Shown: positions 1,178-21,113, counted from the first letter of the stretch. The stretch is DNA of 64,000 nt from Nitrospirota bacterium (GCA_963818475.1 CAWFSF010000006.1:1824001-1888000); one strand, 5' to 3'. Numbers and translations: made by a program. The notes: generated by a model not told the origin, from the sequence alone.

Positions 1178-1228
1178 ACTCCTGACTCCGCTGACTCCTG
1201 ACTCCTGACTTCTTACTTTTTACTTCTT
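1178..1228. repeat. Degenerate heptamer tandem array (ACTCCTG)n
   Basis: actcctg-actccgctg-actcctg-actcctg-acttctt-acttttt-acttctt, directly after and overlapping the radical SAM stop codon. Confidence 0.75.
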
Positions 1229-5318: not shown

Positions 5319-5374
5319 GACAATCTCCCTGATGCTCGATGCAGAATCCAGGAGCCTCTTAACTATAAACAGCC

Positions 5375-5518
5375 TTTGACATACATAACATCGGATAAAA
5401 TCCCGATAACTGCGGATTGTTTCGGACAGAGATCTCACCCTCTTGATGATAGAAGTATCTTTTTGTTTTATTGCTTTATCCGCTTTTATCCGTGTTAATC
5501 CGCTTCTTCAGTGTCCAA
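5375..5518. repeat. Inverted roughly 10-bp-period array element (CGGATAA core), between atpB and atpA
   Basis: Left tttgacat...cggataaaat-cccgataact-gcggatt; right ttatccgc-ttttatccgt-gttaatccgc-ttcttcagtgtccaa. Confidence 0.75.
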
Positions 5519-5559
5519 GATGTTTTCTGGACTTATGAGCTTACCAACTTTATTCTGTA

Positions 5560-7184
5560 TCAGCCAACCGTTTTCATCGCGTCTTCCAGCCCCACTCCCT
5601 GTTTCAGCAAGGCTGCTGCGGATTCGTGGAGGTCCAGAAGCCGCTTGATGATCGCCAGCGTCTTTTCGGGCGGCGAGAAAGCGTCGTCGCTGTATGCGTT
5701 CTGCTGCAGGAACTCGGTGCGGATCATTTCGGCAATCCGCATCAGCAGGCGGTCCGCATCCTGCAGCCCTTCAGCCCCCACGATCTCAGAGACCTCGCGG
5801 AGCGACTCTTCCTCCTGCAGGATCTGGCGGCATCGCGCGAGCAGACGCGTCCCACTCCGAAGAGACCTTTTTTTTGTAATGCGTTGCCACGTCTCCGGCA
5901 TAGAGCGAGTAGCTCTGGAACCAGTTGATCGCCGGATAATGCCTGCGGTGCGCCAGGGAGGTGTCGAGCATCAGAAATGCGCCGGTCGTGCGCAGACAGG
6001 CCTGGGTCACCGGCTCGGTGAAATCTCCGCCCGGCGGTGAGACTGAAAGGATCATGCTGAGCGAGCCGATCCTGTTGTTCAGGGTCTCGACCACGCCGGA
6101 CCGCTCGAAGAACGCGGACAGCCGCGACGCAAGATACGTGGGATAGCCCTCTTCGCCGGGCATCTCTTCCAACGAGGCTGAAATTTCGCGCAGCGCCTCG
6201 GCCCATCGGGAAAGGCTGTCGGCAAGGAACAGCACATGGTAGCCCATATCGCGGTAGTACTCCGCCATGGTGACGGCGGTATAGATCGACGCCTCGCGCG
6301 CAGCCACGGGCATGTTCGACGTATTGACCACGAGCACCGTGCGGTCCCGGAGCGGCCTGCCGCTCCAGGGGTCGCGCAGCTCCCCGAACTCGGCGATCAT
6401 GTCCGCCATTTCGTTGCCGCGCTCGCCGCAGCCGACATAGACAACGATATCCACGTCAGCGAACTTGGCCACCGACTGCTCGAGGATCGTCTTGCCCGTG
6501 CCGAATCCGCCGGGGAAGATGGCGGTCCCGCCGCGCGCCAGGGGGAACAGAAAATCGATGCTGCGCTGGCCGGTCACGAGCGGCTCAGCAGGCGCGAACT
6601 TTCTCTTGTAGGGCCGCGCGAAACGCACTGGCCACTCATGGCAGCCCGGTATGTCCCGGCCGGACTCGAACTGCCCCAGCGGTTCGTCGAGGCTGATGTC
6701 TCCTTCGGTAAGCCTGGCGATCTTTTCACGGTCCCCCGAACCGCCGAGGATAAAGTGTTTGAATGCACCTTCCTGGACCGAGCCGATGATGGCGCCGGGC
6801 GTGATCAGTTCTCCCGGTTTCATCATCGGCGTGAACTGCCACCGCTTCATGTAATCCAGGGCGTACATTTCCTTGCCGCCGGTGATAAAGGGCCCCATTT
6901 CCTTTCTGAGCCGTTCGAGCGGGCGCTGGAGCCCGTCGAACATGCCCGACGAGAAGCCCGGGCCCCAGGCGCACCGTAAGCGGCATACCAACGCCCTTCA
7001 CCGGTTCTCCGACACCCAGGCCGCGCGTGTCCTCATAGACCTGGATCACGGCCCGTTCGCGTTCGAGACGAACGACCTCGCCCGTCAGCATGGCGTGGCC
7101 GACGTAGACGCGCTCGTACAGGGTAAGCCCCTTCAGGTCGGTCGTAACGGTAGGTCCTGATATTCCCTGGATTTTTCCACTCAT
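5560..7184 (-). CDS. atpA: V/A-type ATP synthase subunit A (two apparent frameshifts, ~6965 and ~5880)
   Basis: MSGKIQGISGP start; Walker A PGGFGTGKT, YVGCGERGNEM, NTSNMPVAAREAS, MPGEEGYP, PPGGDFTEPVT, FLQQNAY across three ORF pieces. Confidence 0.95.
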
Positions 7185-7224
7185 TGAGAGACCCCGTTGT
7201 TGTACTGATAATCTTAAACAAACC

Positions 7225-7364
7225 TTTTGACACGGATCAGATCTGATAAACATCGGATAAAATCGGATTTTCTCTTGCGGGAAAAGATTCACCTTTCTGA
7301 TGAGAATCTCACTTTTGATGTATCCGCCCTTATCATACGTTAATCCGATTCTTCCGTGTCCAAA
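7225..7364. repeat. Inverted roughly 10-bp-period array element, homologous to 5375-5518
   Basis: Left ttttgacacggatcag...cggataaaatcggat; right tatccgcc...taatccgattcttccgtgtccaaa; same outer ends as the element after atpA. Confidence 0.78.
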
Positions 7365-7398
7365 TGATTCGGTCACAACAATCTGTTCCCGGCCCCAG

Positions 7399-7737
7399 TC
7401 AGAGCTTCAACCGCACATGGTATCCAATGGCCCGCCTGATGAGGCGTGATGTGTAATCCTCTACATCCTCAGGCGGTTTTTCCGGCGCAGGCAGTACGAG
7501 CAGTATCCCGTGCCATCCTTGTTCCAGTTCCTGCACCCGTTCATACGACATCCCCTGCCCGTTCTGTGCCCGGCTCATCAGCCGTTCATCGATGATCACC
7601 AGGCCGACATCCGGATCGGTCATGCTCCTCTGCAGCGTTTCCTCGGCATCATCCGCCTCGACCGCAGCCTGGGGAAGACCGGTCAGGCTGAATCCGTAGG
7701 ACGCATCAGGAGGCGTTATGAACGATATCTTTTTCAT
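7399..7737 (-). CDS. atpF: V/A-type ATP synthase subunit F
   Basis: GFSLTG, VGLVIIDE, LIRRAIG; 112 aa; operon position. Confidence 0.9.
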   Translation of the reverse strand: MKKISFITPPDASYGFSLTGLPQAAVEADDAEETLQRSMTDPDVGLVIIDERLMSRAQNGQGMSYERVQELEQGWHGILLVLPAPEKPPEDVEDYTSRLIRRAIGYHVRLKL

Positions 7738-7756
7738 GGCCTATCAAAACCGATCT

Positions 7757-8722
7757 TCAGCTGACCAGCTCGTTCTCGATCACGTCCCGTTCCGCGTTTT
7801 TTCCGTAGAACAGGATGCTCAGATTCATCGCCTCCATGGAACAGCGCCAGAGGTAGTCCAGGATCGTTCCAACGCCAAGGGGATCACTTCCCTCCTGTTT
7901 GAGATACTGTGTCGTCGCCCTGTACAGGGCGTGCTCCACCTGGGAGGGGTCCTGCAGCTCTATCTTCACACCGGCATACTGCCTGATAAGCACGCCAGCG
8001 GCCAGAAGGTCCCTCCGCTGCTGGATCTGGACAAGCTGCTCCACCGGCAGACTGCCGAAGGCTATAAAATCGGGTGTGCTCACGGACTCCTGCAGCACGG
8101 AAACGGCAAGTCGTATAAGATTGCGGGCATCGATCATACGAACCATGAATGTTTTGATGAGCGGATGCAGTTTTTGCTGTGCCGCGTATTCGAGGAGAAG
8201 GTTGGTCAATCGACGCTCAACGCCCCGCAGCCCTTCTTCGGCAAAGTATTGCGGCAGGTCGGCAAAGGCCGGAGATAGTCTGCTGAAAATGCGACTGACC
8301 TCGTCAATGGCCGTCGAACTGTCTGTTGACGACAGGCAGGCCTTGCGTAGTTCGTTCGAGAGCAGACTTTCGGTAAAAAGCTCCTCCAGGCGCGCCGACT
8401 TCCTGTCCTTCATCCGCCGGAGGCAGATGCATATCGTTCTGAGCTCGGCATACAGGAAGAAGAGGCCGAATAGTTCCCTGAGGCGTCCGTTCATTTGCCC
8501 GTATACCCAGCGATATTCTTTCATCAACCGACGCCAGACCGCATCCGGAGAGGCTTCGACAACACCCCCGCGGGAGCGCGATGACAGGAGCGCCTCCAGC
8601 GGTGCAGCATCAAAGAGCAGGGTCTTCCAGTCCCTGATCAGTCCGGCCCTCCTGCCCCTGATCCTGGACAGCAGGTACACCGCTGGATAACCCCGGTCTT
8701 CAAGATCGAGTAGAAGTTCCAT
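7757..8722 (-). CDS. atpC: V/A-type ATP synthase subunit C (V0D/AC39 family)
   Basis: Y..SRIRG N-terminus, IDARNL, ILDYLWRCSMEAMNL; operon position; start MELLLD after GAGG. Confidence 0.88.
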   Translation of the reverse strand: MELLLDLEDRGYPAVYLLSRIRGRRAGLIRDWKTLLFDAAPLEALLSSRSRGGVVEASPDAVWRRLMKEYRWVYGQMNGRLRELFGLFFLYAELRTICICLRRMKDRKSARLEELFTESLLSNELRKACLSSTDSSTAIDEVSRIFSRLSPAFADLPQYFAEEGLRGVERRLTNLLLEYAAQQKLHPLIKTFMVRMIDARNLIRLAVSVLQESVSTPDFIAFGSLPVEQLVQIQQRRDLLAAGVLIRQYAGVKIELQDPSQVEHALYRATTQYLKQEGSDPLGVGTILDYLWRCSMEAMNLSILFYGKNAERDVIENELVS

Positions 8723-9278
8723 TGGCTGGCCTCTTTGATCAGCTCCGGGAGCATGGCTTCCCATGCGCGCTCCAGCCGTTTCTCGCAGGTATTGACGACC
8801 GTCACCAGACCGTCGTCACTGGTCACCTCCAGCCCGCCGGAGATCGTTTCCGACGCGGTTATCTTCGCGTTGGGGAAGTAATTTCCGTGCGCGTTCGACA
8901 TCGTCGGGGTTGCACCTTCACGCTTGCCCAGGTGAACCGCGGGAGTTCCTGCACCATGGCCTGAAAAGCCGCGTCGTATTCACCTTCTCTCAACATGCGG
9001 AGCCGGGATCCGGCTATCGCATAGAGAAGATCGGCAAGTTTTCGGTCCGCGGCAAGGCGCAGTCCCCGCTCTTTACTGCGCGTTTCCAGCAGGGCCTGCG
9101 ATCGGATCAAAGCCACTTTGGCCGCCATGATACGACCTGCCTCCTCTTTCGCCTGATCGATCTTCTGTGCGCAGGCTGCCCTGGCAGTATCAGCCTCTGC
9201 GCTCGCCTCCGACCAGACGGCATCCACCCGCTCGCTCGCGGCCGATCGCAGCGACTCGATCAGTTCCTTGCATCCCAT
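8638..9278 (-). CDS. atpE: V/A-type ATP synthase subunit E (frameshift ~8905; 3' end uncertain)
   Basis: Helical N-terminus MGCKELIESL, then ISGGLEVTS...VVNTCEKRLER in a second frame. Confidence 0.85.
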
Positions 9279-9279
9279 G

Positions 9280-9504
9280 TTACTTCACCGTAAAGAGGAT
9301 CATGGTCGCCACCACGAATCCCAGGATCACCATGGTCTCGGGAATGGCGACCAGGATCACGATGGTGCCGGTCAATTCCGGCTTTTCCGCCAGCGTGCCC
9401 GCGCCGGCCGCCCCGATCCGTGACTGCGCCCAGGCCGTTGCGATCGCGGGTACGCTGATGGCCAGGGCTGCACAAAATGCGATCAATACTTTTTCGTAGT
9501 TCAT
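9280..9504 (-). CDS. atpK: V/A-type ATP synthase proteolipid subunit K/c (single hairpin, 74 aa)
   Basis: AWAQSRIGAAGAG...AIPETMVILG with the catalytic Glu. Confidence 0.95.
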   Translation of the reverse strand: MNYEKVLIAFCAALAISVPAIATAWAQSRIGAAGAGTLAEKPELTGTIVILVAIPETMVILGFVVATMILFTVK

Positions 9505-9541
9505 AGGACCTCCTTTTATTTAATCCGGACAAGCCGGAACC

Positions 9542-9650
9542 ATTTTGCCACGAAGACACAAAGGCACGAAGAAATCCTCAATGATTGTACCGTCTATTTA
9601 ATCTGCAAACCTAAAGATTCCTTTGTGTCTTCGTGCCTTCGTGGCAGAAT
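9542..9650. repeat. Inverted 9-bp-period array element (CACGAAGRC), between atpK and atpI
   Basis: 35-bp arms at 9542-9576 and 9616-9650 match at 29/35 as inverted repeats; all differences are transitions. Confidence 0.88.
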
Positions 9651-9684
9651 TATGTTTTTCATTTTGCCTAGATTTTTTCAGCGC

Positions 9685-11565
9685 TTAAACCTTCTTTAAC
9701 GGAGCGAACTTCCTTCCTCCGTGTTCAATGAACTTGCTGAAGAACTCCACATAGTGGAGCCTCAGGGAGTGTATGGTGGGAGAAAAAACGCCCAGAATGA
9801 TGTTCAGCAAATGGATCAGTCCGGCCACGACGACCCCCGTGACCACGTCGCCGGTCACGCCGGCCAGATTGTTCGCAACAAAGGCGAGCAGCACGGAGGT
9901 GAGCCCGATCGCCGCGATGCGGACATAGGATATGATGTTGCCGATGCTTTTGAGAAGTTCCAGCGGCGCCAGCAGACCGCCGGCAAAAAAAAGGAACGGC
10001 GTGAGGAACAGGATCACCAGAACGACGGGACGAGCCAGCAACGCGGGGAAATAGCCGAACAACGACGCGATGATCACCATTAGGCTGATGATAATGACAA
10101 CGCTCAGCGCCTTGTACGCCGCTTCTTTCATGATTTTATGCTTGAATGCATTGATGGCGCCCAGGATCAGGCCAAGGATGATATGGGCGACGCCCACGGC
10201 AACGGAGAATGCGAGCATCGGCACAATAGCCGTGCGACGCTCCATGCAGAGCGGCTCGATATGAAAGAGCCGTTCAGGAAGATCGCCGAAGAATTCACCG
10301 AAGAGTATCCCGAAAAAGGCCGAATAGGCCGAGGCGATCAACAGGATCTTCGCGCCGTCCCTGACCGGTCCTTTTTGACGGTTCTTTTTGAGCAGGATGA
10401 GTGACGTGATGCCGAGCACCAGGGCATATCCTGCGTCACCCAGGATCATGCCGAAAAATATGGGGAAGAATATCGCGATGAACGGCGTAGGATCGTAGGA
10501 CGTGTAGGCCGGCAGCGGCAGCAGGCTCGTGAACAGTTCAAAGGGCTTGAAGTAGGAGGGGTTCTTCAGGACGATCGGCACCTGGTCGAGCTCCTCTTCA
10601 TGCATTTCTTTTTCCTCGATCATGACCCTGGCGCCGAAATCATCGCGCAGCCGTTGTTTGAGCCGCGGAAGGTCTTCCGACTGCATCCATCCGTGAATAA
10701 AAAAGCACATGCGGGTTTCGAAAGCGAAGGCCGTTGTGTTGAGCAGCGAAAGACGGTCGTCGATCCATTCCTGCACGCGCTGGTAGATCGGGACCCATCG
10801 CCGGGTAAAACTTGCCAGTTCCGCATCGATCGCCCGGATCTCGAGCAGCACCTGGTCTGCCCGCTTTTTCACAAAGGACACCTTCTCCGGGAACGTCAAT
10901 TTGGCGAAGGATTCAGGGAACGTGAGCTCGGGAACGTGTTCATCGCTCAGGGATTTTTTTACCTTTTCGGAAACGCTCTTTTCCACGGTGATGAGACCCA
11001 CCAGGGTGCCGTCCTCCGCCGGCTCGGTCTGCAGTTCGTATTTCCAGTCCGTTATTCTCGACAGGGCCGCGCGCAGGTGTTCGACCATCTCGGGTTCGCG
11101 GATCGTCAGTCCGATGAAATCAAGGTCAGGCGTTTCCGTGGTGGTCTCGACGAGTGACGCAAGTGCGTTGAGAAAGATCGAGTACCGGCCAAGCTCGGCC
11201 CCTTCCTTGGCCAGAATTTCGCGCCGTTTGGACAGGTCAGTTGCACTTTCCCGGTGCCGGTCGATGGTCTTGGAAACCGTATCGAGAATGGAGACCGGTT
11301 CGATATAGCTTTTTCTTACGGCAAGGGCGGGCAGCTCAGCAAAGAGCAGTTCGATCTTCTGGCGCAGTTCCTCGAGGAACATGCGCTCAAAAACGGTCTT
11401 CTCATCCAGCATGAAAGAGCGAACGTCCTTTTCCCATTCTTTTTCGATGTACCCCACGGTGGCCGGTTCGATCTGAAATATGCCCATTTCCCGCAGCAGG
11501 GACAGAACCTGCTGCAGCAGAGGCTTTTCGCCGACGATCTCGATCTTGGACATCCTGACTATCAT
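9685..11565 (-). CDS. atpI: V/A-type ATP synthase subunit I (a)
   Basis: DPTPF..FFGMILGDAGY, GEFFG, ISYVRIAAIG, HSLRLHYVEFFSKF. Confidence 0.96.
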   Translation of the reverse strand: MIVRMSKIEIVGEKPLLQQVLSLLREMGIFQIEPATVGYIEKEWEKDVRSFMLDEKTVFERMFLEELRQKIELLFAELPALAVRKSYIEPVSILDTVSKTIDRHRESATDLSKRREILAKEGAELGRYSIFLNALASLVETTTETPDLDFIGLTIREPEMVEHLRAALSRITDWKYELQTEPAEDGTLVGLITVEKSVSEKVKKSLSDEHVPELTFPESFAKLTFPEKVSFVKKRADQVLLEIRAIDAELASFTRRWVPIYQRVQEWIDDRLSLLNTTAFAFETRMCFFIHGWMQSEDLPRLKQRLRDDFGARVMIEEKEMHEEELDQVPIVLKNPSYFKPFELFTSLLPLPAYTSYDPTPFIAIFFPIFFGMILGDAGYALVLGITSLILLKKNRQKGPVRDGAKILLIASAYSAFFGILFGEFFGDLPERLFHIEPLCMERRTAIVPMLAFSVAVGVAHIILGLILGAINAFKHKIMKEAAYKALSVVIIISLMVIIASLFGYFPALLARPVVLVILFLTPFLFFAGGLLAPLELLKSIGNIISYVRIAAIGLTSVLLAFVANNLAGVTGDVVTGVVVAGLIHLLNIILGVFSPTIHSLRLHYVEFFSKFIEHGGRKFAPLKKV

Positions 11566-11568
11566 GCG

Positions 11569-11883
11569 TCATCCCGGGAGTATGGTACGGATATGCTTCT
11601 CCACAATCGCCTGCAACACTGCTCTGTCCAGATGGTCCATATGTTCAACGAGCGTTGCCGCAGCCCTCACGCTCGATGCAGTGCTCTCCTCTGCTTCTTT
11701 CCTCGCCCGGTCCTCTGCCGCTGCGAGCATGTCCTTGATCCGATCCTCTTCCTTAAGGACCTCGTCTTCGCAAACCTTTTTCACCTTTTCAAGCCAGTCG
11801 CGCGCCTTTGCCTGTTCGATTTCAAGGCACTTCTGGATCTCCCGCTCTACCTCGATGACCTCGCTCAAAACATTGTTGTCCAT
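11569..11883 (-). CDS. V/A-type ATP synthase subunit G/H (peripheral stalk)
   Basis: 104 aa charged coiled coil, first gene of the operon. Confidence 0.8.
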   Translation of the reverse strand: MDNNVLSEVIEVEREIQKCLEIEQAKARDWLEKVKKVCEDEVLKEEDRIKDMLAAAEDRARKEAEESTASSVRAAATLVEHMDHLDRAVLQAIVEKHIRTILPG

Positions 11884-11898
11884 ACTTCAATTGTAGCA
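11884..11898 (-). promoter_or_regulatory. Extended -10 promoter directly before the start codon (possible leaderless mRNA)
   Basis: TG-C-TACAAT, 6 nt, then ATG (11883); no SD sequence. Confidence 0.5.
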
Positions 11899-12059
11899 AA
11901 AAAAAACAGCTACATTTAGAGGGACAGTATGCAACATTCCGCTACAGTGCATTTTTTTAGCCCATTATCCGACATAAGACAGAAAAAACGAGCATGCGCA
12001 TCACAGCACTTGCATTAACCACTGCCTGCGGTAAAATGCATCAACAGAGGAGGTGCAAG

Positions 12060-12647
12060 ATGATACGGTATAGCGGAGTGAACCACCTTGCAATGGCTAC
12101 GGGCAACATGGATGGCACCATTCGCTTTTGGCGGGACCTGCTCGGCATGCGTATGGTCGCTGGCTTGGGGCAACCCGGGTATCGGCACTACTTTTTCGAG
12201 GTATCGGACCGCGACATGATCGCCTTCTTTGAATGGCCGGGTATTCTTCCGGTGCCGGAAAAGGAGCATGGCCGTCCGGTTGCTGGACCGTTCTTGTTCG
12301 ATCATGTTTCCTTCGGCGTGGAGAGCGAAGACGGTCTTTGGGCACTGAAGGACAGGATCTCTGCCGCCGGGATATGGGTGTCGGAAGTGATCGACCACGG
12401 GTTCATACATTCCATCTATTCCTTTGATCCCAACGGCATCCCGATCGAGTTCAGCGTGCCGGTCAAGAACATCGATCCGCGCAGCAAGCCGTTCATGGCC
12501 GACCGGGCGCCGGTGAAAACAGCACTCGAAGGGGTTGAACCGCGATATGAAGCATGGCCGGCTGTCGCACGACCGACACCAAAAGAGGAGCGCACCGTTT
12601 ACCCCGGAGCCGGCAGTGAGCTGTTTCACGGAAAGAAAAAGGAATGA
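12060..12647 (+). CDS. VOC (glyoxalase/bleomycin resistance) family protein
   Basis: GVNHLAM, FDHVSFGV, SIYSFDPNGIPIEF; GAGGAGG RBS before ATG 12060. Confidence 0.92.
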   Translation: MIRYSGVNHLAMATGNMDGTIRFWRDLLGMRMVAGLGQPGYRHYFFEVSDRDMIAFFEWPGILPVPEKEHGRPVAGPFLFDHVSFGVESEDGLWALKDRISAAGIWVSEVIDHGFIHSIYSFDPNGIPIEFSVPVKNIDPRSKPFMADRAPVKTALEGVEPRYEAWPAVARPTPKEERTVYPGAGSELFHGKKKE

Positions 12648-12846
12648 TGATAATGACCGCAACTAAGAACACATGAGGAGGAAAAACCTGGTACGAATAA
12701 TGGTCCGGCATGATCTGCGTCCCTGCAATGGTTGCATTGGATGTAATCTCTTGACTAACACCTGCCCAACCTCAACAATTCCATCGAGTTGCCGTCATCC
12801 CCATTGTTTTTTTCACCACGATCATCACATTTACACTGAGCCAGCC

Positions 12847-12880
12847 TTGACAAGCACCAGTTCTTTGATACACTTGAGCC
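12847..12880 (+). promoter_or_regulatory. sigma70 promoter of the cytochrome operon (possible leaderless mRNA)
   Basis: TTGACA-16 bp-TACACT with a TG extension; ATG 6 nt after the -10; no SD sequence. Confidence 0.55.
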
Positions 12881-13852
12881 ATGAACCTACCCCTTCTGAT
12901 CAGCATCATCGCATGCCTGCTTTTCTCTTCTCACGCTTTTGCAACGGACGACTGTTATTCCTGCCATGGGAAAAAGGGCGGCCGAACCTATGTGAGCAAA
13001 GATGCCTTCGAGCAGTCGGTCCACGGCTGGATGGCCTGCGATAAATGCCACCTCGGCATCTCGCCCTACCCCCATGGGATCGTATCCAAAGTCAATTGCG
13101 GCATCTGCCATTTTCTCGGCAGGGAAGGCGCTCCCAAAGAGCAGGCCGCGGAGTATAAACTGAGCGTCCATGGACGTGCGGCCGGCAAGGGAATTGCCCT
13201 GGCTCCGACCTGCCAGACCTGCCATGGTTCTCATGCGATCTACCGATCCACAGACCCCCGGTCAACGACCGGCAGGGAGAAGATCCCGTCCCTCTGCGGC
13301 CAATGCCATGCGGCCGAGCTCGGCACGTATGAAAAAAGCATCCATGGCATCGCTCCTCCTCAAAGAACAATATGAACAGCGCTCCGACCTGTTTCGACTG
13401 CCATATGGAGCACCGCATTCCGGGCGCCTCGGAACCGAAGTGGAAACTGTCGCTGATCGACAAATGCGGCACCTGCCATCCCGAAGAGATGAACACGTAT
13501 CAGAAGACCTATCACGGCAAAGTGACCCGTCTCGGTTATACGACCATCGCCATGTGCTGGGACTGCCACGGTTCGCATGGCATCCTTCCGCAGAATGACC
13601 CTGCATTCCACGCTGTCGTCAAAGAATCTGGTCGCCACCTGTGCAAAGTGCCACCCCGGCGCCACAGAAAGCTTTACCAAATTCTATGCCCATGCGGAGG
13701 AGACGAACCGGGCAAAGTATCCGGTCCTTTACTACACCTTCGTGTTCATGACCCTGCTGCTCATCGGGGTCTTCGCCTTCTTTCTGACCCACACGTTCCT
13801 GTGGGCGTACCGCGCGTTAAAAGAGCGGATACAGAAAAAAGGAGGGATGTAA
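12881..13852 (+). CDS. Multiheme (9 CxxCH) cytochrome c with signal peptide and C-terminal TM anchor (frameshifts ~13360 and ~13605)
   Basis: CYSCH, CDKCH, CGICH, CQTCH, CGQCH, CFDCH, CGTCH, CWDCH, CAKCH across three frames; terminal hydrophobic helix containing His. Confidence 0.9.
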
Positions 13853-13854
13853 AC

Positions 13855-14672
13855 ATGGCACTGGTCAAACGGTTCAACGCCTATCACCGGATCCTGCATG
13901 TCGCCATGGCCGTCAGCTTCATCGGCCTCGTCGCATCCGGCATGCCGATCAAGTATGCCCAGGCGCCCTGGGCCGCGTGGCTGACGAAGCTTCTCGGGGG
14001 ATACGCAGGGAGCGGCCCTGATCCATCGCATCTGCGCGGTCATCACCTTCGGCTATTTCGCGGCGCATATCGGCTATGTCCTGTACGACATCGTTATCGT
14101 CAGAAAGTTCAAGTTCAACCCCCTCGGGCCCTGAATCCATGGTCCCCTGGCTCAAGGACCTCGAGGACATCATCGAGCAACTTCAAGTGGTTCCTCGGCC
14201 TGGGTCCCCGCCCGCAGCTGGACCAGTGGACCTACTGGGAAAAGTTCGATTACTGGGCCGTCTTCTGGGGCGTGGGCATGATCGGCGTCTCCGGACTGTT
14301 CCTGTGGTTCCCCGTGTTCTTCGGCCAGTTCTTACCCGGCTGGGCCTTTAACATCGCGACCGTCATTCATAGTGACGAAGCGCTCCTGGCGGCCGGATTC
14401 ATCTTCACGATCCACTATTTCAACACCCATATGCGGCCGGAAAAGTTCCCCATGGATCCGGTCATCTTTACCGGAAACCTGACGCTCGAGGAGCTGAAGC
14501 ACGAACGGCCCCTCGAATACGAGCGCCTCGTAGCCGAGAACAAGCTTGGCCAATACGCGACCGAGGCCCAGGCGCCCTGGATCACCGATGCAGGCATCAT
14601 CTTCGGTTTCCTGACGGTTCTGATCGGATTTGTCTACTGGTCCTGATCATTCTCGGACAGTTCGTGTATTAA
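13855..14672 (+). CDS. Cytochrome b subunit, FdnI/HydC-like (CbcL membrane-domain type; frameshifted)
   Basis: RFNAYHRILH, LIHRICA (alternate frame), YWEKFDYWAVFWG, IHSDEALLA, IHYFNTH; own GGAGGG RBS. Confidence 0.88.
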
Positions 14673-14675
14673 CTC

Positions 14676-15385
14676 ATGTCCTTACAACAGAGAGACCTCT
14701 TCATAAAAAACATCTTTTCGACGGTCGCGCCTCACGTCGATTTCCTGAGCACCGGTTTCAGCTTCGGCTTCGACCATTACTGGCGAAACAGAGCGGTCAG
14801 GCGCGCCGGGATCGCGGAGGGCGAACGGGTGCTCGATGTCTGCACCGGCACCGGGGAACTGGCGTTCCTGCTTGCCGACAAGGTCGGCGAGAACGGCCTG
14901 GTCACCGGCGCCGATTTCTGCAGCGAGATGCTGGACCGGGCGCGTAAGAAATCCTCGGACCGTCACACGAATCTTTCCTTCATCCTATCCGACACCAAGG
15001 CCCTGGCCTTCCCCGACAACATCTTTGATCTGGTCACGGTCTCCTTCGGCATGAGGAACATCCCCGACACGACCATTGCGCTGCAAGAGATCAAACGGGT
15101 GCTGAAGCCGGGCGGCAGGTTCATCTGCCTTGAGCTGACACGGCCGCACCTGGCCTGGTTCCGCAGCCTCTACGAATGGTATGTCTTCTGGATCATGCCG
15201 TTCATCGCGAAAACTGGTCGTCAAGACAGCCGCCCCCTATCTGTATCTGCCGCGGTCCATCAACGCCTTCTATCCCCCGGACGAGTTCAGGCAGATCATC
15301 GCCGAAAGCGGCTTTACCAGACGTGACCGTCGATTCCCTGACCATGGGGATCGCGACGATCTACGGGGCGGTAAAACGTGGATAA
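14676..15385 (+). CDS. ubiE: UbiE/MenG-family quinone C-methyltransferase (frameshifted near the C-terminus)
   Basis: IFSTVAP..D, VLDVCTGTG, FDLVTVSFGMRN, RVLKPGGRFICLE, YLYLPRSI..F, LTMGIATI. Confidence 0.88.
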
Positions 15386-16022
15386 CGTCGGTATTTTCTG
15401 CGACAAAGGACAACGCATTTTCTGCATGACTATTCACGGCGCTGCATCGAGCGCCTGTACGGGCCACTCGCTGTTCCCGGTCCCTTTTCCTTTTCTCTCC
15501 GCCTATCTGGAAGCAAACATCAAAAAGGAAGCGGACAAGGACCGCTTGATCATCGAACATGCGGCGGAAGCCCTTGCCGCGGGGAAAGAACCGGGCGATG
15601 TGGACATCGAGGATATCTTCGAGCGAACAAAAACCGTCGACAAGGCCTTCGTCCGCCGTCTTCTGATCCCCTCATTCTCGATCCAGGTGCGCTACGAGGA
15701 CATTGCCGACATCAGGAAAAAACGGATCGCTCGGCTGTCAACAACGGCCGGCGAGATGCTGCAGGCACTGGGAAGGATCATCATCGTTCTCTGAAGTGGT
15801 CCGGAACACCTACACGCGAATCGCAGTTCCGCGGAGTCATCCTGGACATCCTTCACCTGTACAACCAGGAGACCAGGATGCTTGACCGATTCCATCAAGT
15901 TCTTCTCGCCCTTCAACCGGGCGATCAGCCTGTTTGCCGAGAACATGTTCGACACCATGGAGGCCGTCGCAGCAAGCATGGTCGACGAGTATGCCGAGAA
16001 ACTGTTCCGGGGAGAATGTCGC
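15378..16022 (+). CDS. Hypothetical protein (frameshifted; as assembled it runs in frame into the radical SAM gene)
   Basis: Coding-like helical sequence across ORFs 15378-15794 and 15882 onward; overlaps the ubiE stop. Confidence 0.65.
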
Positions 16023-17802
16023 ATGCACAGAACGGACCTGATCCTGCTCCACCCGCCCAGCGTCTTCAAATTCCGCGAACTGCCGCTCTTTTTCGGCCCG
16101 GTGAGCGATGTCGTGCCGTCGTCGTCCATTTTCGAGATCTACCCCATCGGGTTCCTGACCATGTCGCAGTACCTGCACACGCACGGCCTGTCGGTCCGGA
16201 TCGTCAACCTGGCGCTCAAGATGCTGCGGACCGCCACTTCGATCCGGAACCGTTCATCAAGCCAAACTGAGGCCGATCGCCTTCGGCATCGACCTCCACT
16301 GGCTCCCCCACGTGGACGGCAGCCTGAGCCTTGCCGAGCTCTGTCAAAAAGCACCATCCCGACATCCCGGTCATCCTGGGCGGCCTGAGCGCGACCTATT
16401 ATCACGAAGAGATCATGCGCGACTATCCCTTTGTGGACTTCGTCCTGTGCGGCGACTCCACGGAAGAGCCCGCTGCGTCAGCTCATGGAAGCGATCAAGG
16501 CGGGCCACGGGTACGAGCAGGTCCCGAACCTCGTCTGGCGCGACGCCGGCGGCACTGCGGTCGTGAACGAGCGGTCCTTCCAGCCCGAGACCATGGACTA
16601 CATCGATTTCGACTATCCCCATCTCATGAAGATGGTGCTCAAGTATCTCGACCCCACGGGCTATATCCCCTTCAAGTACTGGCTCAGTTACCCCGTGACC
16701 GCGGTCTTCACCTGCCGAGGCTGCAACCACAACTGCGGCACCTGCGGGGGCTCGCTCTCGGCGTTCAACAAGGTCTGCTTGCGCTCCAAGGCCTGCTTCC
16801 GCTCGCCCGAGCTCGTGGCCGATGACATCAAACGAATGTCGGAATACACCGGAGCGCCGGTCATCGTGCTGGGAGACCTGCTGATGGCCGGCAGGAATTA
16901 TGCCGACCGGTTCCTGGATGCCATGAAGAAGCACCACGTCCGGAACGAGGTCTGCATCGAGTTCTTCACCCCGCCTCCAGCCGATTTCCTTGCAAAAGGC
17001 GGCTGATTCCATCAGGACCTTCAACGTGGAGATGTCGCCGGAGTCCCACGACATCAACGTGCAGAAAGATCTTCGGGAAGAATTACGAGAACAACGCGCT
17101 GGAGGACATGATCGAAACGCTCATCAGCGTCGGGTGCAAGCGGATCGACCTGTTCTTCATGGTGGGGCTTCCGAACCAGACCTATGATTCGGTCATGGAT
17201 ACGGTGAAGTACTGCGGTTCGCTCATGGACCGGTTCGGCAGCAACGGCGACACCGGCAAGATACTGCCGCTCATCGCCCCGCTCGCGCCGTTCATCGATC
17301 CGGGCAGCATGATCTTCGAGGACCCGGAAAAGTACGGGTACACGTTCTTCTATAAGACCCTTACGGAACACCGCAAGGCCATGCTCATGCCGAGCTGGAA
17401 GTTTGCGTTGAATTACGAGACGAAATGGATGAACCGCGATGAGATCGTGAGGGCGACCTATGACGGGGCGCTGGGGCTGCTCAACGCTAAAGGAACAGTA
17501 CGGCGCCATCGAGCCAGAAGACCGCGGCAAAGGTCAGGAACCATCTTGAACGCGCGGTGGCCTTAAATGCGAAGATCAAGGACCTGTCGAGCATCGACGA
17601 TTCGCTGCGGGAGGAGATCTTCAGCCTGAATACGCTGGACCTGGTCTGCGACAAGCACGAACTTGACTGGCCGATCAAAGGCTGGAAGCTCAATGTGTTC
17701 AAGCTGGCAAAGCTGCTGCTTCAGAATTCGAATAACGGCAATGGTTCTTTTCAACAGACAAAGGCTGTCCCGGCTTTATCGAATGAAAAGGAGAGCCGAT
17801 GA
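16023..17802 (+). CDS. B12-binding radical SAM protein, resembling the Ta0216/TIGR04190 family (several frameshifts)
   Basis: DLILLHPPSV...FGPVSDVVPSSSIFEIYPIGF, IDLHWLPH, ILGGLSATYY, RGCNHNCGTCGG, SPESHD, LFFMVGLP, APFIDPGS; family assignment from recalled motifs. Confidence 0.85.
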
Positions 17803-17867
17803 GCCATCTGGCAGTTCATAGCAGTAACTAAAAATCAAACTCCACTGACAACGTTATTTCGCCTCGC

Positions 17868-18242
17868 TTACCCTTCACGTAATATGAGACCACGCTTTAT
17901 CTTGTCTAAACGTGCCTTGGCAGCTGGATCTGTGTTGAAGAACGCTTCAAGCTGGTTGCATGCATATTCGGTGCAATACGCGCAGTTTTCCAGCTTCTTT
18001 TCCCGCGCGCACTTCCTCATAGGGCAGTTCTTGCATCCTGAGAATAATCTACCACTTTCTATCCGGCAACCATCGCAGTCAGTGATTTCTTCCAACGTGT
18101 AATTTATCCCATACGCTTCCTTGCACAGCTTCACAATCTCGGACCTCATTCTTGTTTTTTCTTCTTTGTTCCCCTGCCTCGTTGCCAGGTAGATCGGACA
18201 TGTTCGACAGATTAAACCGCAGTAAGCGACCATCTCGGCCAT
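17868..18242 (-). CDS. DUF3795-like cysteine-rich protein
   Basis: YCGLICRTCP...CDGC...CKNCPMRKCA...NCAYC...C pattern. Confidence 0.8.
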   Translation of the reverse strand: MAEMVAYCGLICRTCPIYLATRQGNKEEKTRMRSEIVKLCKEAYGINYTLEEITDCDGCRIESGRLFSGCKNCPMRKCAREKKLENCAYCTEYACNQLEAFFNTDPAAKARLDKIKRGLILREG

Positions 18243-18529
18243 GGCTTTTTCGTTTCCTCTCATATGGCTTGCAAACCGTTGCATAATAATCACTTCAATA
18301 TCAATATAGATCAACAGAGCAAAATATCATCTCTTTTTTTCTTTCGGATCAATAAAAATGACTACATGATAAGTAAGTAGCATTTCATCGATCTCAACCT
18401 TTACTATTGAGCGGTCAGGACCTACTATAGTATTTCGATATTCTTGTCATTAATTGACATTCCAACGCGACGGAGCTAGCTTTTCAGTACAGCGCGCTGG
18501 ACAACCTAAATTAAAAGGAGGTTTCTGTC

Positions 18530-19084
18530 ATGAAAAAGGTTACACATGCAGCATTTATTCTTGCAGTCGTCGCGGTCACAATGGTCTTCGTGACCGGCCT
18601 TGCGACAGCCGCATCAACAGCATCACCGAAGGACGTTGGGGAACTAAATGCCGAGATCACCATGCTCAACTCCAACGCGAGCCTGCCTCAGGGTGACAAA
18701 ATAATCACGAAGCAACTGATGGATACGTTCAAGGTCGGCAGCGACAGGGTCACCAGCCTGATCGGAGCCAGTACCCTGATGGGAAGCAACAAAGCACAGT
18801 ACGGAGACGCGGCAGCGATCCTGGCCTTCGCCAGCGAGATGCCCGGAGGAGTCACCGCGGAGAATATCACCAAGGTCTCGAGCATGCGGCAGCAAACGCG
18901 GGATTGGGCGCAGCTGGCACAGAACCTGAACGTGGATGTTGGAAAGGTGGCAAGCAAACTGAGCAGCCTCGAGAACGACAGTCATAAGAGCATCAAACAG
19001 GCTCTTGCCGATTCGTTTTCTGGGAGCGCGGCAGGCGGTATGAGCGGAGGATCGGAAAGCGGTGCTGGAGGCAGCAAGTATTGA
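18530..19084 (+). CDS. Exported hypothetical protein with Gly/Ser-rich tail
   Basis: AAGGAGG RBS, Sec-type signal peptide, 184 aa. Confidence 0.8.
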   Translation: MKKVTHAAFILAVVAVTMVFVTGLATAASTASPKDVGELNAEITMLNSNASLPQGDKIITKQLMDTFKVGSDRVTSLIGASTLMGSNKAQYGDAAAILAFASEMPGGVTAENITKVSSMRQQTRDWAQLAQNLNVDVGKVASKLSSLENDSHKSIKQALADSFSGSAAGGMSGGSESGAGGSKY

Positions 19085-19108
19085 TTTTTCAGATCATTGA
19101 CCCTGAGC

Positions 19109-19144
19109 AAAAGGCAGTCGGTCTCGTGCCGGCTGCCTTTATTG
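19109..19144 (+). terminator. Intrinsic terminator (possibly bidirectional)
   Basis: AAAGGCAGTCGG...CCGGCTGCCTTT followed by ATTGTT. Confidence 0.6.
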
Positions 19145-19372
19145 TTCCGACCCTGCGTCACAGCTTGGCCCCTCAGGTCAGTAAGATGCCCCAGCTTTTT
19201 TTGCCAGACAACAACGGCTGCGATGCTTTTACGCCGAAATTATTCAATATCGGATCATGTCGTTCGTTGCAGAATCCCCAGGTCGGGAATAAACGCCTGC
19301 GATTAAAGGCTTCCCGCCCATAGCGAAGAATTGAGGTCATATGACCAGCCCGATCCTGTAAATCTGCATATT

Positions 19373-20902
19373 TTAAATCCTTCTCTCGTATTCGCAGAAG
19401 GGGCACCGCCAGGCGTTCTCCGTCTGGTACCACTGCATTTTCTTACGGCAGACCGGGCAAGCCTTTTTTTTGGTCGAGGGCTGCTTATTGGACGATGATG
19501 ATTTCTTTTTTGATTCCTCGTTTTCGTTCGACGACAGGGATGTCAAAGAGTCGGCAAGGGGCGAAAATGGATCGAAAATCGGCGCCGAAGCTGGACCGGG
19601 CTTGGGTGCGTCCGTATGTTCTTTTTTTTCTTCGATTTTACCCTGGACTTCATTCTTTTTTAATTCTTCGTATGCGCAGGAATAACACTGCCACATTTCC
19701 TCATTACTGAGGAAGTCCATTCGCCCACCGCACATAGGGCATTTTTTCTGCCATTCCGTATCCTTCGGCGCAGAAGACTCACGGATTTCGATTTTCTGCT
19801 CGCCGACTTCTTTTTTCTCGCTGGGAATATCCCATTCAATAGAATTCCTATGCGGAGTGGGCTTCGGTGCGTTCGTCTGTTCACCTTTTTCTTCGTATGC
19901 ACAGGAATAACACTGCCACATTTTCTCATTAATGAGGAAGTCCATTCGCCCACCGCACATAGGGCATTTTTTCTGCCATTCCGTATCCTTCGGCGCAGAA
20001 GAATCAGGGACTTCGATTTTCTGCTCGCCGCTTTCCTTTTTCTCGATGGGAATATCCCATTCAATAGAATCCCTATGCGGAGTGGGCTTCGGTGCGTTCG
20101 TATGTTCACTTTTTTCTTCGATTTTACCCTGAACTTCATCCTCTTTTAATTCTTCGTATGCACAGGAATAACACATCCACATTTTCCCATCAATGAGGAA
20201 GTCCATTCGCCCACCGCACATAGGGCATTTTTTCTGCCATTCCGTATCCTTCGGCGCAGAAGACTCACGGATTTCGATTTTCTGCTCGCCGACTTCCTTT
20301 TTCTCGCTGGGAGTATCCCTGTGCGGGACTGGCTGAGCGGCCGCGCTTTCAGCAGCAAATTCCTCGACCTTTTTTTTGATATAGGTTATCTCCGCCCCGA
20401 TATCCGTAAAGAGTTCCCTCATGGCCTTCTCGACGAGTTCCATTTCCTTTTCACGTGTCGCCATGCCATTGAGGAGCCCTTTTTCTTCGCTTTCAAGCCA
20501 TACTATTCTTTCACGTAGTTTCGCTATCTCGCCTCTCATCTCCTGCGATTTGGTTTCCATGACCTTACGTTCGTCATGCCAGCCGGGGAGAGCAGGCATT
20601 AAGCCCTTCTCGAGTATTTTAAGCTCATCAAGCTGATTGTTGACTGCCGCAATGATCTCTTGCCGGCTTAGTTTCGAAGTCGTCGACAACGCCTTGATAG
20701 CGGCATTATAACGCTGTTTCTCCTCAGGAATGACTTCCCGGAACGATTCCTCGAGTCCACGGAATTTTCCGAATATTGTATCCTCGCCCTCAATTACTTT
20801 TTTTATTTCATCGCGTAGACGATGGATTTTGGATGATAGTTCTTCGTCTCCCTTCGATTTTCCAAAGAGATCGGCAACTATCCGGGAAAGGATTTCGTTC
20901 AT
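19373..20902 (-). CDS. Coiled-coil protein with four zinc-ribbon domains
   Basis: N-terminal coiled coil; three CPMC-x14-CYSC units and a terminal CPVC...CPFC; 509 aa, intact. Confidence 0.85.
   Translation of the reverse strand: MNEILSRIVADLFGKSKGDEELSSKIHRLRDEIKKVIEGEDTIFGKFRGLEESFREVIPEEKQRYNAAIKALSTTSKLSRQEIIAAVNNQLDELKILEKGLMPALPGWHDERKVMETKSQEMRGEIAKLRERIVWLESEEKGLLNGMATREKEMELVEKAMRELFTDIGAEITYIKKKVEEFAAESAAAQPVPHRDTPSEKKEVGEQKIEIRESSAPKDTEWQKKCPMCGGRMDFLIDGKMWMCYSCAYEELKEDEVQGKIEEKSEHTNAPKPTPHRDSIEWDIPIEKKESGEQKIEVPDSSAPKDTEWQKKCPMCGGRMDFLINEKMWQCYSCAYEEKGEQTNAPKPTPHRNSIEWDIPSEKKEVGEQKIEIRESSAPKDTEWQKKCPMCGGRMDFLSNEEMWQCYSCAYEELKKNEVQGKIEEKKEHTDAPKPGPASAPIFDPFSPLADSLTSLSSNENEESKKKSSSSNKQPSTKKKACPVCRKKMQWYQTENAWRCPFCEYERRI
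19666..20330. repeat. Three near-identical intragenic repeats (periods 225 and 261 bp)
   Basis: Copies start at 19666, 19891 and 20152 (cttcgtatgc...ggaagtccattcgcccaccgcacatagggcattttttctgccattccgtatccttcggcgcagaaga). Confidence 0.92.
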
Positions 20903-21113
20903 GTTTTTTCCTCAGTGCCCATTCATTTCCTCGCTTTAAAGTTCTGATAGCACATATTTCCAGATGATTTTATCCATCATTGAATATATTCAAAAACCGA
21001 TGTCAACAATGTCGAATGTGAGGGTCTACCACAGATACAGAATGTAGCCTGATGTGTTTTAAATAAATAAATACGACTACACTGAGTTCAGAAAGTTATC
21101 ATTGGCCCAGACC

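Follow-up and report, generated by a model that had tools for sequence, protein, structure and literature searches.

A five-gene cluster in a Nitrospirota genome

We analysed a 64,000-nucleotide stretch from a Nitrospirota bacterium (below, the window; G000:C6:1824001-1888000), part of a 4.66 Mb genome assembly (G000) in 7 contigs that is 91% complete with 6.2% contamination. Positions 12881-17802 of the window hold five consecutive plus-strand genes, which encode a nonaheme cytochrome c, a cytochrome b, a methyltransferase of the UbiE/MenG type, a 218-aa protein without a recognized family, and a cobalamin (B12)-binding radical S-adenosylmethionine (rSAM) enzyme of family TIGR04190. The cluster may couple a menaquinone-tailoring step to a quinol oxidase. 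All five are broken by small insertions and deletions (indels) and none has an intact open reading frame (ORF) in the window, as the mention of corrected genes in the initial annotation implies; the intact orthologous locus of a same-genus organism, Nitrospirae bacterium GWC2_56_14 (L024), served as a stand-in for the broken genes.

The gene content and order proposed in the initial annotation of this DNA were recovered by Pfam and NCBIfam searches of the ORF fragments and again in the relatives. The gaps of 3 nt or less, or overlaps, that it described between the genes agree with the spacing in L024 (gaps of 2 nt and 2 nt, then overlaps of 8 nt and 25 nt). Its placing of the genes behind one promoter was not demonstrable: a sigma-70-like match is present at 12847-12874 on the plus strand (TTGACA and TACACT 16 nt apart, the second hexamer preceded by TG, and lying 7 nt ahead of the ATG at 12881), a match to the consensus only, and six such sites were observed in 6 kb, compared to 3.3 expected. 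Scans found no good sigma-54 site upstream of the cluster (27 matches in the window, with 30.4 expected by chance) and no terminator-like site downstream of 17802.

The five-gene cluster is conserved in one family of anaerobic Nitrospirota. TIGR04190 was detected at E <=1e-30 in 13 of 41 related genomes, 11 of them above the family cut-off; leaving out G000 itself, these were 12 of 24 genomes of the same family and none of 16 from other families of the phylum. The gene order was the same in all ten relative loci fetched, with ORFs intact except for a few breaks in a long-read genome (G003). Other members of the Nitrospirota clade retain parts of the cluster: the rSAM gene is accompanied by the cytochromes but not by UbiE in L045, L052, and L063, and by UbiE and the unknown protein but not by cytochromes in L040 and L057; in L051 and L053 UbiE immediately adjoins the rSAM gene.

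A cytochrome pair of CbcL-like domain make-up

The cytochrome c gene (12881-13849, plus strand) shifts frame near 13350, 13365, and 13605, and the same-genus locus L029 aligns to it in three frame pieces, 12881-13348, 13348-13602, and 13607-13849. The ORF fragments match the multihaem families PF14522 and PF14537 (Pfam). Nine haems, as initially annotated, are found once the frames are followed, with five CXXCH motifs in the ORF at 12881-13375, three at the start of that at 13372-14646, and one in that at 13577-13852. The L024 protein also has nine, together with a signal peptide or N-terminal hydrophobic segment and a C-terminal hydrophobic anchor; the length in relatives is about 321 aa.

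The FdnI/HydC-type cytochrome b gene (13855-14673, plus strand, with its end inferred from alignment to L024 and L025) carries insertions at 14006, 14126, and 14175 and a deletion at 14634, and encodes 271 aa in relatives. The L024 protein scores 38.8 bits on PF01292 (cut-off 30.1) and the frameshifted window ORF 20.7; the best NCBIfam match is formate dehydrogenase gamma, at 39.5 bits and under its cut-off. Orthologs of this cytochrome b (at least 69% identity) were found only in the 13 genomes with the TIGR04190 gene, plus two contig-end fragments in G020, and paralogs in the remaining genomes are at most 51% identical.

CbcL and CbcBA of Geobacter sulfurreducens are menaquinol oxidases of the bc type in the inner membrane that serve low-potential acceptors. 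According to the sections of the sources available, CbcL unites a membrane domain of dihaem b with a c domain of nine haems in the periplasm (PMC9129911), and CbcBA combines a dihaem b with a c of seven haems that a C-terminal helix anchors (bioRxiv 10.1101/2021.04.15.440034). The window pair has the domain make-up of this type, a HydC/FdnI-type PF01292 b with a periplasmic multihaem c, and is like these systems in that the gene for a C-terminally anchored c with nine CXXCH motifs precedes that for a PF01292 b. It is unlike CbcL, one fused protein, in consisting of two genes in the order c then b, and the likeness is one of domain make-up. By analogy, the pair would be a menaquinol:cytochrome c oxidoreductase, a split form of the CbcL/CbcBA-like design. 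We considered the Geobacter cbcBA operon as a precedent for the whole cluster and rejected it; as described in the available sections of that source, it includes a response regulator and hypothetical proteins and neither ubiE nor an rSAM gene (bioRxiv 10.1101/2021.04.15.440034), whereas the window cluster holds both and has no sigma-54 site that we could find upstream. A literature search found no paper treating CbcBA together with a radical SAM enzyme.

UbiE as the resident MenG

The UbiE/MenG gene (14676-15385, plus strand, insertions at 15208 and 15321; about 235 aa in relatives) belongs to the demethylmenaquinone methyltransferases of TIGR01934, with 184.2 bits for the window fragment at 14676-15326 (cut-off 158.35) and 235 bits for the L024 protein, which also passes the equivalog NF001244 (229.8 bits, cut-off 216). 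An identity as the methyl-plastoquinone methyltransferase MpqE (NF052510) was rejected, with 175.6 bits for the window fragment and 221.0 for its ortholog against a cut-off of 335; 27 genomes of family f1 searched for MpqE at E <=1e-80 gave no match.

The cluster copy is the single UbiE/MenG above cut-off in G000, which also encodes two PF02621 genes of the MqnA/MqnD type (futalosine pathway) and in which no MenA-type gene was found. Anaerobic Nitrospirota are described as having the futalosine pathway, and Thermodesulfovibrio islandicus as having menaquinone, in the portion of the source available (Elling et al., 10.1101/2024.07.27.605408). A UbiE ortholog is present in all 13 genomes with the TIGR04190 gene and also, at 57-59% identity, in five genomes of the same family without it, where it has the same surroundings, a glyoxalase-like gene and the V-ATPase operon; in two cases a member of the geranylgeranyl reductase family is encoded next to it. 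Because it is the sole MenG of G000 and has the same synteny in relatives without the rSAM gene, UbiE likely catalyzes the housekeeping last step of menaquinone synthesis. Gene content and synteny thus point to the resident MenG of a futalosine-pathway organism, flanked by the cytochrome pair and the unknown protein-rSAM pair as accessory modules, rather than to the extra tailoring enzyme of the initial annotation. It is unlike MenG/UbiE genes generally in being embedded between two such pairs.

Seven genomes of the same family (G002, G007, G008, G011, G013, G020, and G023) gave no UbiE/MenG match at E <=1e-25, and two of them are 97-100% complete; these organisms may lack menaquinone or use another methyltransferase. 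In two relatives without the TIGR04190 gene (L117, 584-6176; L118, 5872-10896), UbiE stands beside a conserved gene set comprising a BchE-like B12-binding rSAM enzyme (TIGR02026, about 405 bits, under cut-off), a relative of LuxE-like acyl-protein ligases, a small membrane protein, and another B12-binding rSAM enzyme.

A class-B radical SAM enzyme and its helical partner

The rSAM gene (16017-17802, plus strand; about 600 aa in relatives) is split into at least five frame pieces. Window fragments score 83.5, 59.6, 174.5, and 157.3 bits on TIGR04190, covering model positions 1-67, 103-319, and 357-482; a whole-genome search recovered the pieces in three frames, and the window gene alone falls below the family cut-off. 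The L024 protein, at 639.4 bits (cut-off 500), confirms the assignment to TIGR04190 (B12_SAM_Ta0216) made in the initial annotation, and contains the domains PF02310 (48.2 bits, cut-off 32.1) and PF04055 (42.3 bits, cut-off 29.5). The CX3CX2C residues C235, C239, and C242 are nearly invariant among 50 family members, and the motif is present in the window ORF at 16431-17006.

An AlphaFold model of the enzyme (pLDDT 93.2, pTM 0.92) has the fold of class-B rSAM methylases, as judged by Foldseek. Its top matches in the Protein Data Bank (PDB) were TsrM (E 2.7e-17), then TokK, MgmA, OxsB, and CysS, to about 1e-13, with AprD4 also found. Like TsrM, TokK, CysS, and MgmA, the enzyme would have an N-terminal B12-binding Rossmann domain followed by a radical SAM barrel. 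It is unlike them in that a sequence search of the PDB returned no chain at E <=0.01 and in that the model superposes on solved cobalamin rSAM enzymes with a TM score of about 0.5 at 12-16% identity; the non-methylating OxsB and AprD4 score only slightly lower. TsrM methylates an aromatic sp2 carbon. The model thus supports a class-B enzyme (cobalamin plus 4Fe-4S) of family TIGR04190, for which methyl transfer itself is a prediction.

The HemN-like class C enzymes MenK, MqnK, and MenK2 act without cobalamin. We rejected MenK/MqnK as the identity of the window enzyme, given the presence of a B12-binding domain, the absence of any HemN-like family from its 13 NCBIfam matches, and a TM score of 0.26 to HemN (1olt; E 3.9e-5). 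If our proposal is right, the window enzyme would be like MenK, MqnK, and MenK2 in adding a ring methyl group to menaquinone and so lowering its potential, and unlike them in its B12-binding domain and class-B fold. A full-text literature search found no paper naming TIGR04190 or Ta0216, in keeping with the initial remark that no function had been assigned to the family. Among papers found to join methylmenaquinone, radical SAM, and cobalamin, those listed describe, by title and abstract, no class-B menaquinone methylase.

The gene directly upstream (15378-16041, plus strand, seven insertions, with its end inferred from alignment) encodes a lineage-restricted protein of about 215 aa that has no Pfam or NCBIfam match. 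Its predicted structure is soluble and all-helical (pLDDT 86.8); Foldseek found no match at E <=0.001, the best VIA-align Z of 6.2 is within the helical-bundle background, and the ESM Atlas gave no usable match. A word-based search of 5.8 billion proteins found only 88 relatives, and every named one is labelled Nitrospirota or Thermodesulfovibrionales. Of the 41 genomes, 13 encode both this protein and the rSAM enzyme, the former always directly upstream of the latter, and 28 encode neither, a distribution that points to an obligate pair. A predicted complex of the two scored 0.00, which counts neither for nor against binding.

TIGR04190 neighborhoods across phyla

At a threshold of E <=1e-30, a scan of 1.84 billion representative proteins found at least 393 TIGR04190 clusters (50% identity). 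Members of the family occur in Nitrospirota, Thermodesulfobacteriota, Chloroflexota, Planctomycetota, and Actinomycetota, and its name points to Thermoplasma as well. We examined 79 neighborhoods (47-100% identity), found with an alignment of 10 sequences and drawn from the best 80 of 591 confirmed matches, by running hidden Markov models of neighbor families on all six frames within about 8 kb. The genes of the window cluster recur, with UbiE in 17 of the 79 loci, the unknown protein in 18, the window-type cytochrome c in 17, and the window-type cytochrome b in 15; a different PF01292 protein is found in seven. Among other quinone or prenyl genes, MenA was found in seven loci (TIGR00751, 137.7 bits, cut-off 102.15) and a polyprenyl synthase in six, and a protein with Radical_SAM and DUF3463 domains was found in eight. 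Further neighbors are SelA (21/79), SelB (4/79), FdhB (15/79), FdhE (15/79), MoxR (9/79), and DUF58 (8/79). The gene for subunit I of the V/A-type ATPase, found upstream of the cluster in the window, likewise lies near the rSAM gene in 15 of the 79 loci, Geobacter-type ones included.

Fusions provide a second kind of link. Two long family representatives, P0212 and P0247, have a C-terminal UbiE domain (two other long ones are fused to TatC or PGA_cap). P0212 is a protein of an Actinomycetota genome that NCBI annotates as TIGR04190; a search among long proteins with its UbiE part yielded seven 90%-identity clusters (P0212 and P0360-P0365, 771-858 aa) with B12-binding, rSAM, and UbiE domains; P0247 (893 aa) is the eighth fusion. 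These fusions come from NCBI, ENA, JGI, and Logan assemblies. The same search returned other long proteins in which a related UbiE domain is joined to a polyprenyl synthase or a chorismate-binding domain, and this UbiE type is therefore likely quinone-related.

In a quick maximum-likelihood tree of the rSAM proteins of 72 of the 79 loci and the eight fusions (seven loci without a plus-strand ORF of at least 450 aa were dropped), the family falls into five groups. One contains the fusion clade and an Actinomycetota locus, L106, in which genes for a cytochrome b and a multihaem c come after the rSAM gene. Another is an Anaerolineae clade in which the rSAM gene lies between MoxR and DUF58 genes; a third, the MenA/polyprenyl synthase clade, comes from Planctomycetota, Lentisphaerota, Aerophobetes, and Bipolaricaulota; a fourth is a Syntrophia-type clade with formate dehydrogenase (Fdh) and SelA genes, including a Zixibacteria locus (L098) with MenA; and the last unites Nitrospirota and Desulfuromonadales. 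Quinone links in the form of UbiE fusion, UbiE adjacency, or MenA are thus seen in three to four of the five major clades, and two large clades have no quinone neighbor. Among non-Nitrospirota genomes with the family, four of five encode a MenG above cut-off elsewhere and none of the five has MqnA/MqnD. The test of co-occurrence proposed in the initial annotation is positive in part, with the UbiE fusions in eight clusters, the clade with MenA and polyprenyl synthase, and the 17 loci with UbiE; linkage to quinone genes fails as a general rule, given SelA in 21 loci, MoxR/DUF58 in about 10, and the absence of UbiE from L045, L052, and L063.

Several clades have neighborhoods of their own. In the MenA clade (L085, L086, L091, L097, L109, and L114), a second rSAM gene, that with Radical_SAM and DUF3463 domains, precedes the TIGR04190 gene. 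Its nearest family is TIGR03961 (136 bits, under cut-off), which is named after a Picrophilus protein, so that two families named after Thermoplasmatales proteins travel together in bacteria. The combination of MenA, polyprenyl synthase, and two rSAM genes suggested a new menaquinone head-group pathway, an idea set aside for G000 because MqnA/MqnD are present there. In Anaerolineae/Chloroflexota loci (L082, L090, L093, L099, L104, L108, L110, and L113), the rSAM gene is inserted between genes for a MoxR AAA+ ATPase and a DUF58 protein, which usually form one operon. In Syntrophia-type loci (L069-L081, L089, L095, and others), it lies between a set encoding selenocysteine-containing FdhA (split at the Sec codon), FdhB, and FdhE, a UshA-like relative, and selA, which is followed by genes for a pseudouridine synthase, a Cu-oxidase_4 protein, and DUF167. 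SelB adjoins the rSAM gene in L083, L086, L087, and L092.

Frameshifts and the quality of the assembly

The region 12800-17900 was aligned to three same-genus relatives at 84-89% nucleotide identity. It contains 23 window-only insertions (22 of a single base and one of two bases, 24 nt in all) and two window-only deletions, all within an indel-rich stretch at 13350-17510 that is probably the result of consensus error; the aligned part upstream of this stretch, from 12800, has no window-only indel. Only one insertion, a T at 16990 beside a T, is a candidate for extending a run, and the others differ from both neighboring bases. In 12 of the 23, a figure that gap placement by the aligner may have inflated and that to this extent weakens our reading, the added base is identical to the allele of a relative in the neighboring column (12% at random junctions; binomial p 3e-6), and the window would therefore hold both alleles in tandem. 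Fifteen of the 23 adjoin a column that is polymorphic among the relatives, compared to 36.5% expected (p 0.005).

A search for reads of the source sample found no public run with more than 6% of the sampled words of the stretch. Short-read contigs of four environmental runs, compared at a likeness of at least 85%, come from relatives (about 85-95% identity) and inform only on those relatives. Two contigs from X6 (1314 and 3836 nt) together cover 12803-17786. Among the matches listed, the extra base is missing at 13349, 13367, 13605, 14011, 15208, and 17485 in X6, at 14007, 14126, and 14177 in X8, at 13605 and 14011 in X9, and at 14007 and 17485 in X1. Indel errors are present outside the five-gene cluster as well, since the gene for the A subunit of a V/A-type ATPase (7205-5563, minus strand) is split over three frames (7205-6945, 6979-5852, and 5835-5563). 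As a test of whether errors are local, coverage by frames of at least 250 aa, which is 0.45 for the cluster region with a genome median of 0.71 and is 0.30 or less in 5.8% of 5-kb windows, is not decisive.

These frameshifts could be real and the whole operon a decaying pseudogene cluster in this organism. Such decay would fit the concentration of about 25 indels in 4.2 kb while three genes just upstream (9685-12647) have intact ORFs, each a single match to the relatives' proteins. It would also fit the absence of the cluster from 12 of 24 genomes of the same family, which indicates that loss does occur, and the presence of an IS-type transposase-like ORF 1.6 kb downstream. Bacteria are usually biased toward deletions, however, and 23 insertions with two deletions is the opposite pattern; large deletions are absent, and each frame piece still matches relatives at about 87-94% amino-acid identity. 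Half of the insertions double a polymorphic site with the alternative allele, the essential ATPase gene in the same window is frameshifted too, and G003, a long-read genome of the same genus in 9 contigs, has different indels of its own. We therefore regard decay as very improbable. The excess of insertions, the doubled polymorphic sites, the identity kept inside frame pieces, and the damage to an essential gene lead us to infer that the frameshifts are most likely consensus errors of a mixed-strain long-read assembly, a reading that the 6.2% contamination estimated for G000 also favors. Caution is warranted before genes in long-read metagenome assemblies are called decayed, as groups of single-base insertions can arise there locally and give the look of pseudogenes.

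Genes surrounding the cluster

Upstream of the cluster, the V/A-type ATPase operon spans 3990-11883 on the minus strand, with subunits I, C/AC39, A, and B. A cysteine-rich DUF3795 protein (148 aa; 17868-18314, minus strand) is encoded convergently with the end of the rSAM gene. The region at 18000-21000 has a low GC content (0.42-0.48) and looks like a mobile element; within it, a 509-aa ORF (19373-20902, minus strand) matches a transposase zinc-ribbon (IS1595) and, weakly, a Cas12f/TnpB-like family, and an identical 16-mer occurs at 19678 and 19903, 225 nt apart. Further genes for B12-binding rSAM enzymes are found nearby. A 449-aa ORF at 1220-2569 (minus strand) has PF02310 and PF04055 domains, and a 510-aa open frame with a weak TIGR04190 match (69 bits) lies about 5 kb before the start of the window (G000:C6:1818200-1819015).

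Discussion

We propose, with a probability of about 0.45, that the five-gene cluster encodes cobalamin-dependent menaquinone tailoring coupled to a CbcL-like quinol oxidase, and that its frameshifts are an artefact. In this model, the membrane-anchored periplasmic nonaheme cytochrome c and the dihaem-type cytochrome b would, by their domain make-up, form a menaquinol:cytochrome c oxidoreductase. UbiE/MenG, a clear member of its family, would make menaquinone from the demethylmenaquinone of the futalosine pathway, and the helical protein and the class-B rSAM enzyme could then modify menaquinone, or a late precursor, in a cobalamin-dependent reaction. The likeliest reaction would be a C-methylation that lowers the quinone potential to suit the adjacent low-potential quinol oxidase. 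The parts of this model differ in strength. Neighborhoods and fusions suggest that TIGR04190 probably acts on menaquinone or a precursor; ring C-methylation as the reaction is a tentative suggestion. The initial interpretation, a modified quinone with an extra methyl or methylthio group matched to this oxidoreductase, is partly supported, and both that quinone and its added group are predictions. A functional tie between TIGR04190 and menaquinone metabolism appears to be the best-supported reading of the gene contexts, without being universal across the family.

Several observations weigh against this proposal. Most of the 79 sampled loci have no quinone gene within 8 kb, selenium, formate dehydrogenase, or MoxR/DUF58 genes being found instead (SelA in 21/79, FdhB or FdhE in 15/79, MoxR/DUF58 in about 10), and in 11 of the 72 loci of the tree none of the markers searched for was found. 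The loci are close kin within clades and therefore represent few independent events, and all rSAM-UbiE fusions form one clade and thus a single fusion event. The known menaquinone ring C-methylases, MenK and MqnK, are class C and not class B (references in PMC8065906). The fold matches include two class-B enzymes, OxsB and AprD4, whose reactions are not methylations. Some Nitrospirota loci keep the cytochromes without UbiE and others UbiE without the cytochromes, which leaves the partner of the rSAM enzyme ambiguous. Finally, quinone tailoring in these uncultured organisms is a prediction from gene content.

In an alternative explanation, the rSAM enzyme and its helical partner serve the cytochrome module, by modifying a haem, another cofactor, or a residue of the cytochrome b/c complex, or by assisting its assembly, and UbiE is present only by synteny. 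The restriction of the orthologous cytochrome b to the 13 genomes with the rSAM gene (and the G020 fragments) would be expected on this account, as would the three loci with cytochromes c and b but no UbiE, the order of genes in L106, and a different PF01292 protein directly upstream of the rSAM gene in Desulfuromonadales-type loci (L054 and L058). The PF01292 protein beside the rSAM gene in delta-type loci is dissimilar to the window cytochrome b (BLASTP E 0.07). The UbiE gene does occupy the same neighborhood, near the glyoxalase-like gene and the V-ATPase operon, in relatives without the rSAM gene. The fusions to UbiE in eight clusters and the adjacency to MenA and polyprenyl synthase without nearby cytochromes are hard to explain in this way, however, L040 and L057 retain UbiE, the unknown protein, and the rSAM gene without cytochromes, and most members of the Syntrophia and Anaerolineae clades have no cytochrome neighbor; we consider a role in cytochrome modification unlikely.

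A substrate outside quinones and cytochromes, such as another isoprenoid lipid, a cofactor, or a selenium-linked process, with the quinone neighbors a lineage-specific coincidence, seems doubtful to us rather than far-fetched. SelA in 21 and SelB in 4 of the 79 loci, within 8 kb and in several phyla, together with formate dehydrogenase genes in 15, would fit a selenium link, as would the relative of a UshA-like (seleno)protein (NF041198, 199 bits, cut-off 275) encoded directly upstream in the Syntrophia-type clade. The position between MoxR and DUF58 in 9 or 10 Anaerolineae loci also favors a role outside quinones, and the gene set of the MenA clade, in which a polyprenyl synthase is joined by a DUF3463 rSAM enzyme whose nearest families are TIGR03961 and HpnH, might just as well act on a prenyl lipid other than a quinone. 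Coincidence has to account, though, for three menaquinone links in separate clades (UbiE fusion, UbiE adjacency, and MenA above its equivalog cut-off), and for the related UbiE domain that is fused elsewhere to quinone-related partners. We thus favor menaquinone tailoring as the function of the Nitrospirota cluster.

Pairing of a B12-binding rSAM gene with a quinone methyltransferase gene of the UbiE family has parallels. A Leptospirillum cluster comprises mpqA, mpqC, a gene for a cobalamin-binding rSAM methyltransferase (LFE_2124), and mpqE (10.1101/2024.07.27.605408), and for Synechocystis Slr0320 the authors speculate on quinone methylation (PMC8065906). As far as the available portions of these sources go, the window cluster is like both in that a B12-binding rSAM enzyme is encoded beside a UbiE-family quinone methyltransferase. 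In one of the Nitrospirota genomes we searched (G031; L120, 5995-8261), a gene for MpqE (373 bits, cut-off 335) is directly followed by one for a B12-binding rSAM enzyme that is Slr0320-like (NF045585, 438 bits, under the cut-off of 775) and scores only 27.5 bits on TIGR04190, and that consequently belongs to a different family. By NCBIfam criteria this organism makes methyl-plastoquinone, and at its locus another, unrelated B12-binding rSAM family accompanies a quinone methyltransferase of the UbiE type.

For anaerobes living near the thermodynamic limit, the energy that can be conserved is determined by the redox potential of menaquinone, and methylated menaquinones are, to our knowledge, the known way to lower it. 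A broader possibility, which we put forward tentatively, is that TIGR04190 constitutes a widespread, unrecognized class of cobalamin-dependent menaquinone tailoring enzymes, most likely ring C-methylases that would make methylmenaquinone independently of MenK/MqnK, with the Nitrospirota enzyme having a dedicated helical partner and a product that a low-potential quinol oxidase of the CbcL type would use. A methylated menaquinone, thermoplasmaquinone, is made by Thermoplasma, and Ta0216, the founding member of the family, could for this reason be the enzyme that methylates it. If menaquinones are indeed modified by such an additional, cobalamin-dependent route, a function could be assigned to thousands of enzymes now labelled "hypothetical", the travelling of this rSAM gene with quinol-oxidizing cytochromes and formate dehydrogenases would be explained, and the supply of cobalamin would be tied to the tuning of respiratory chains in sediments and groundwater.

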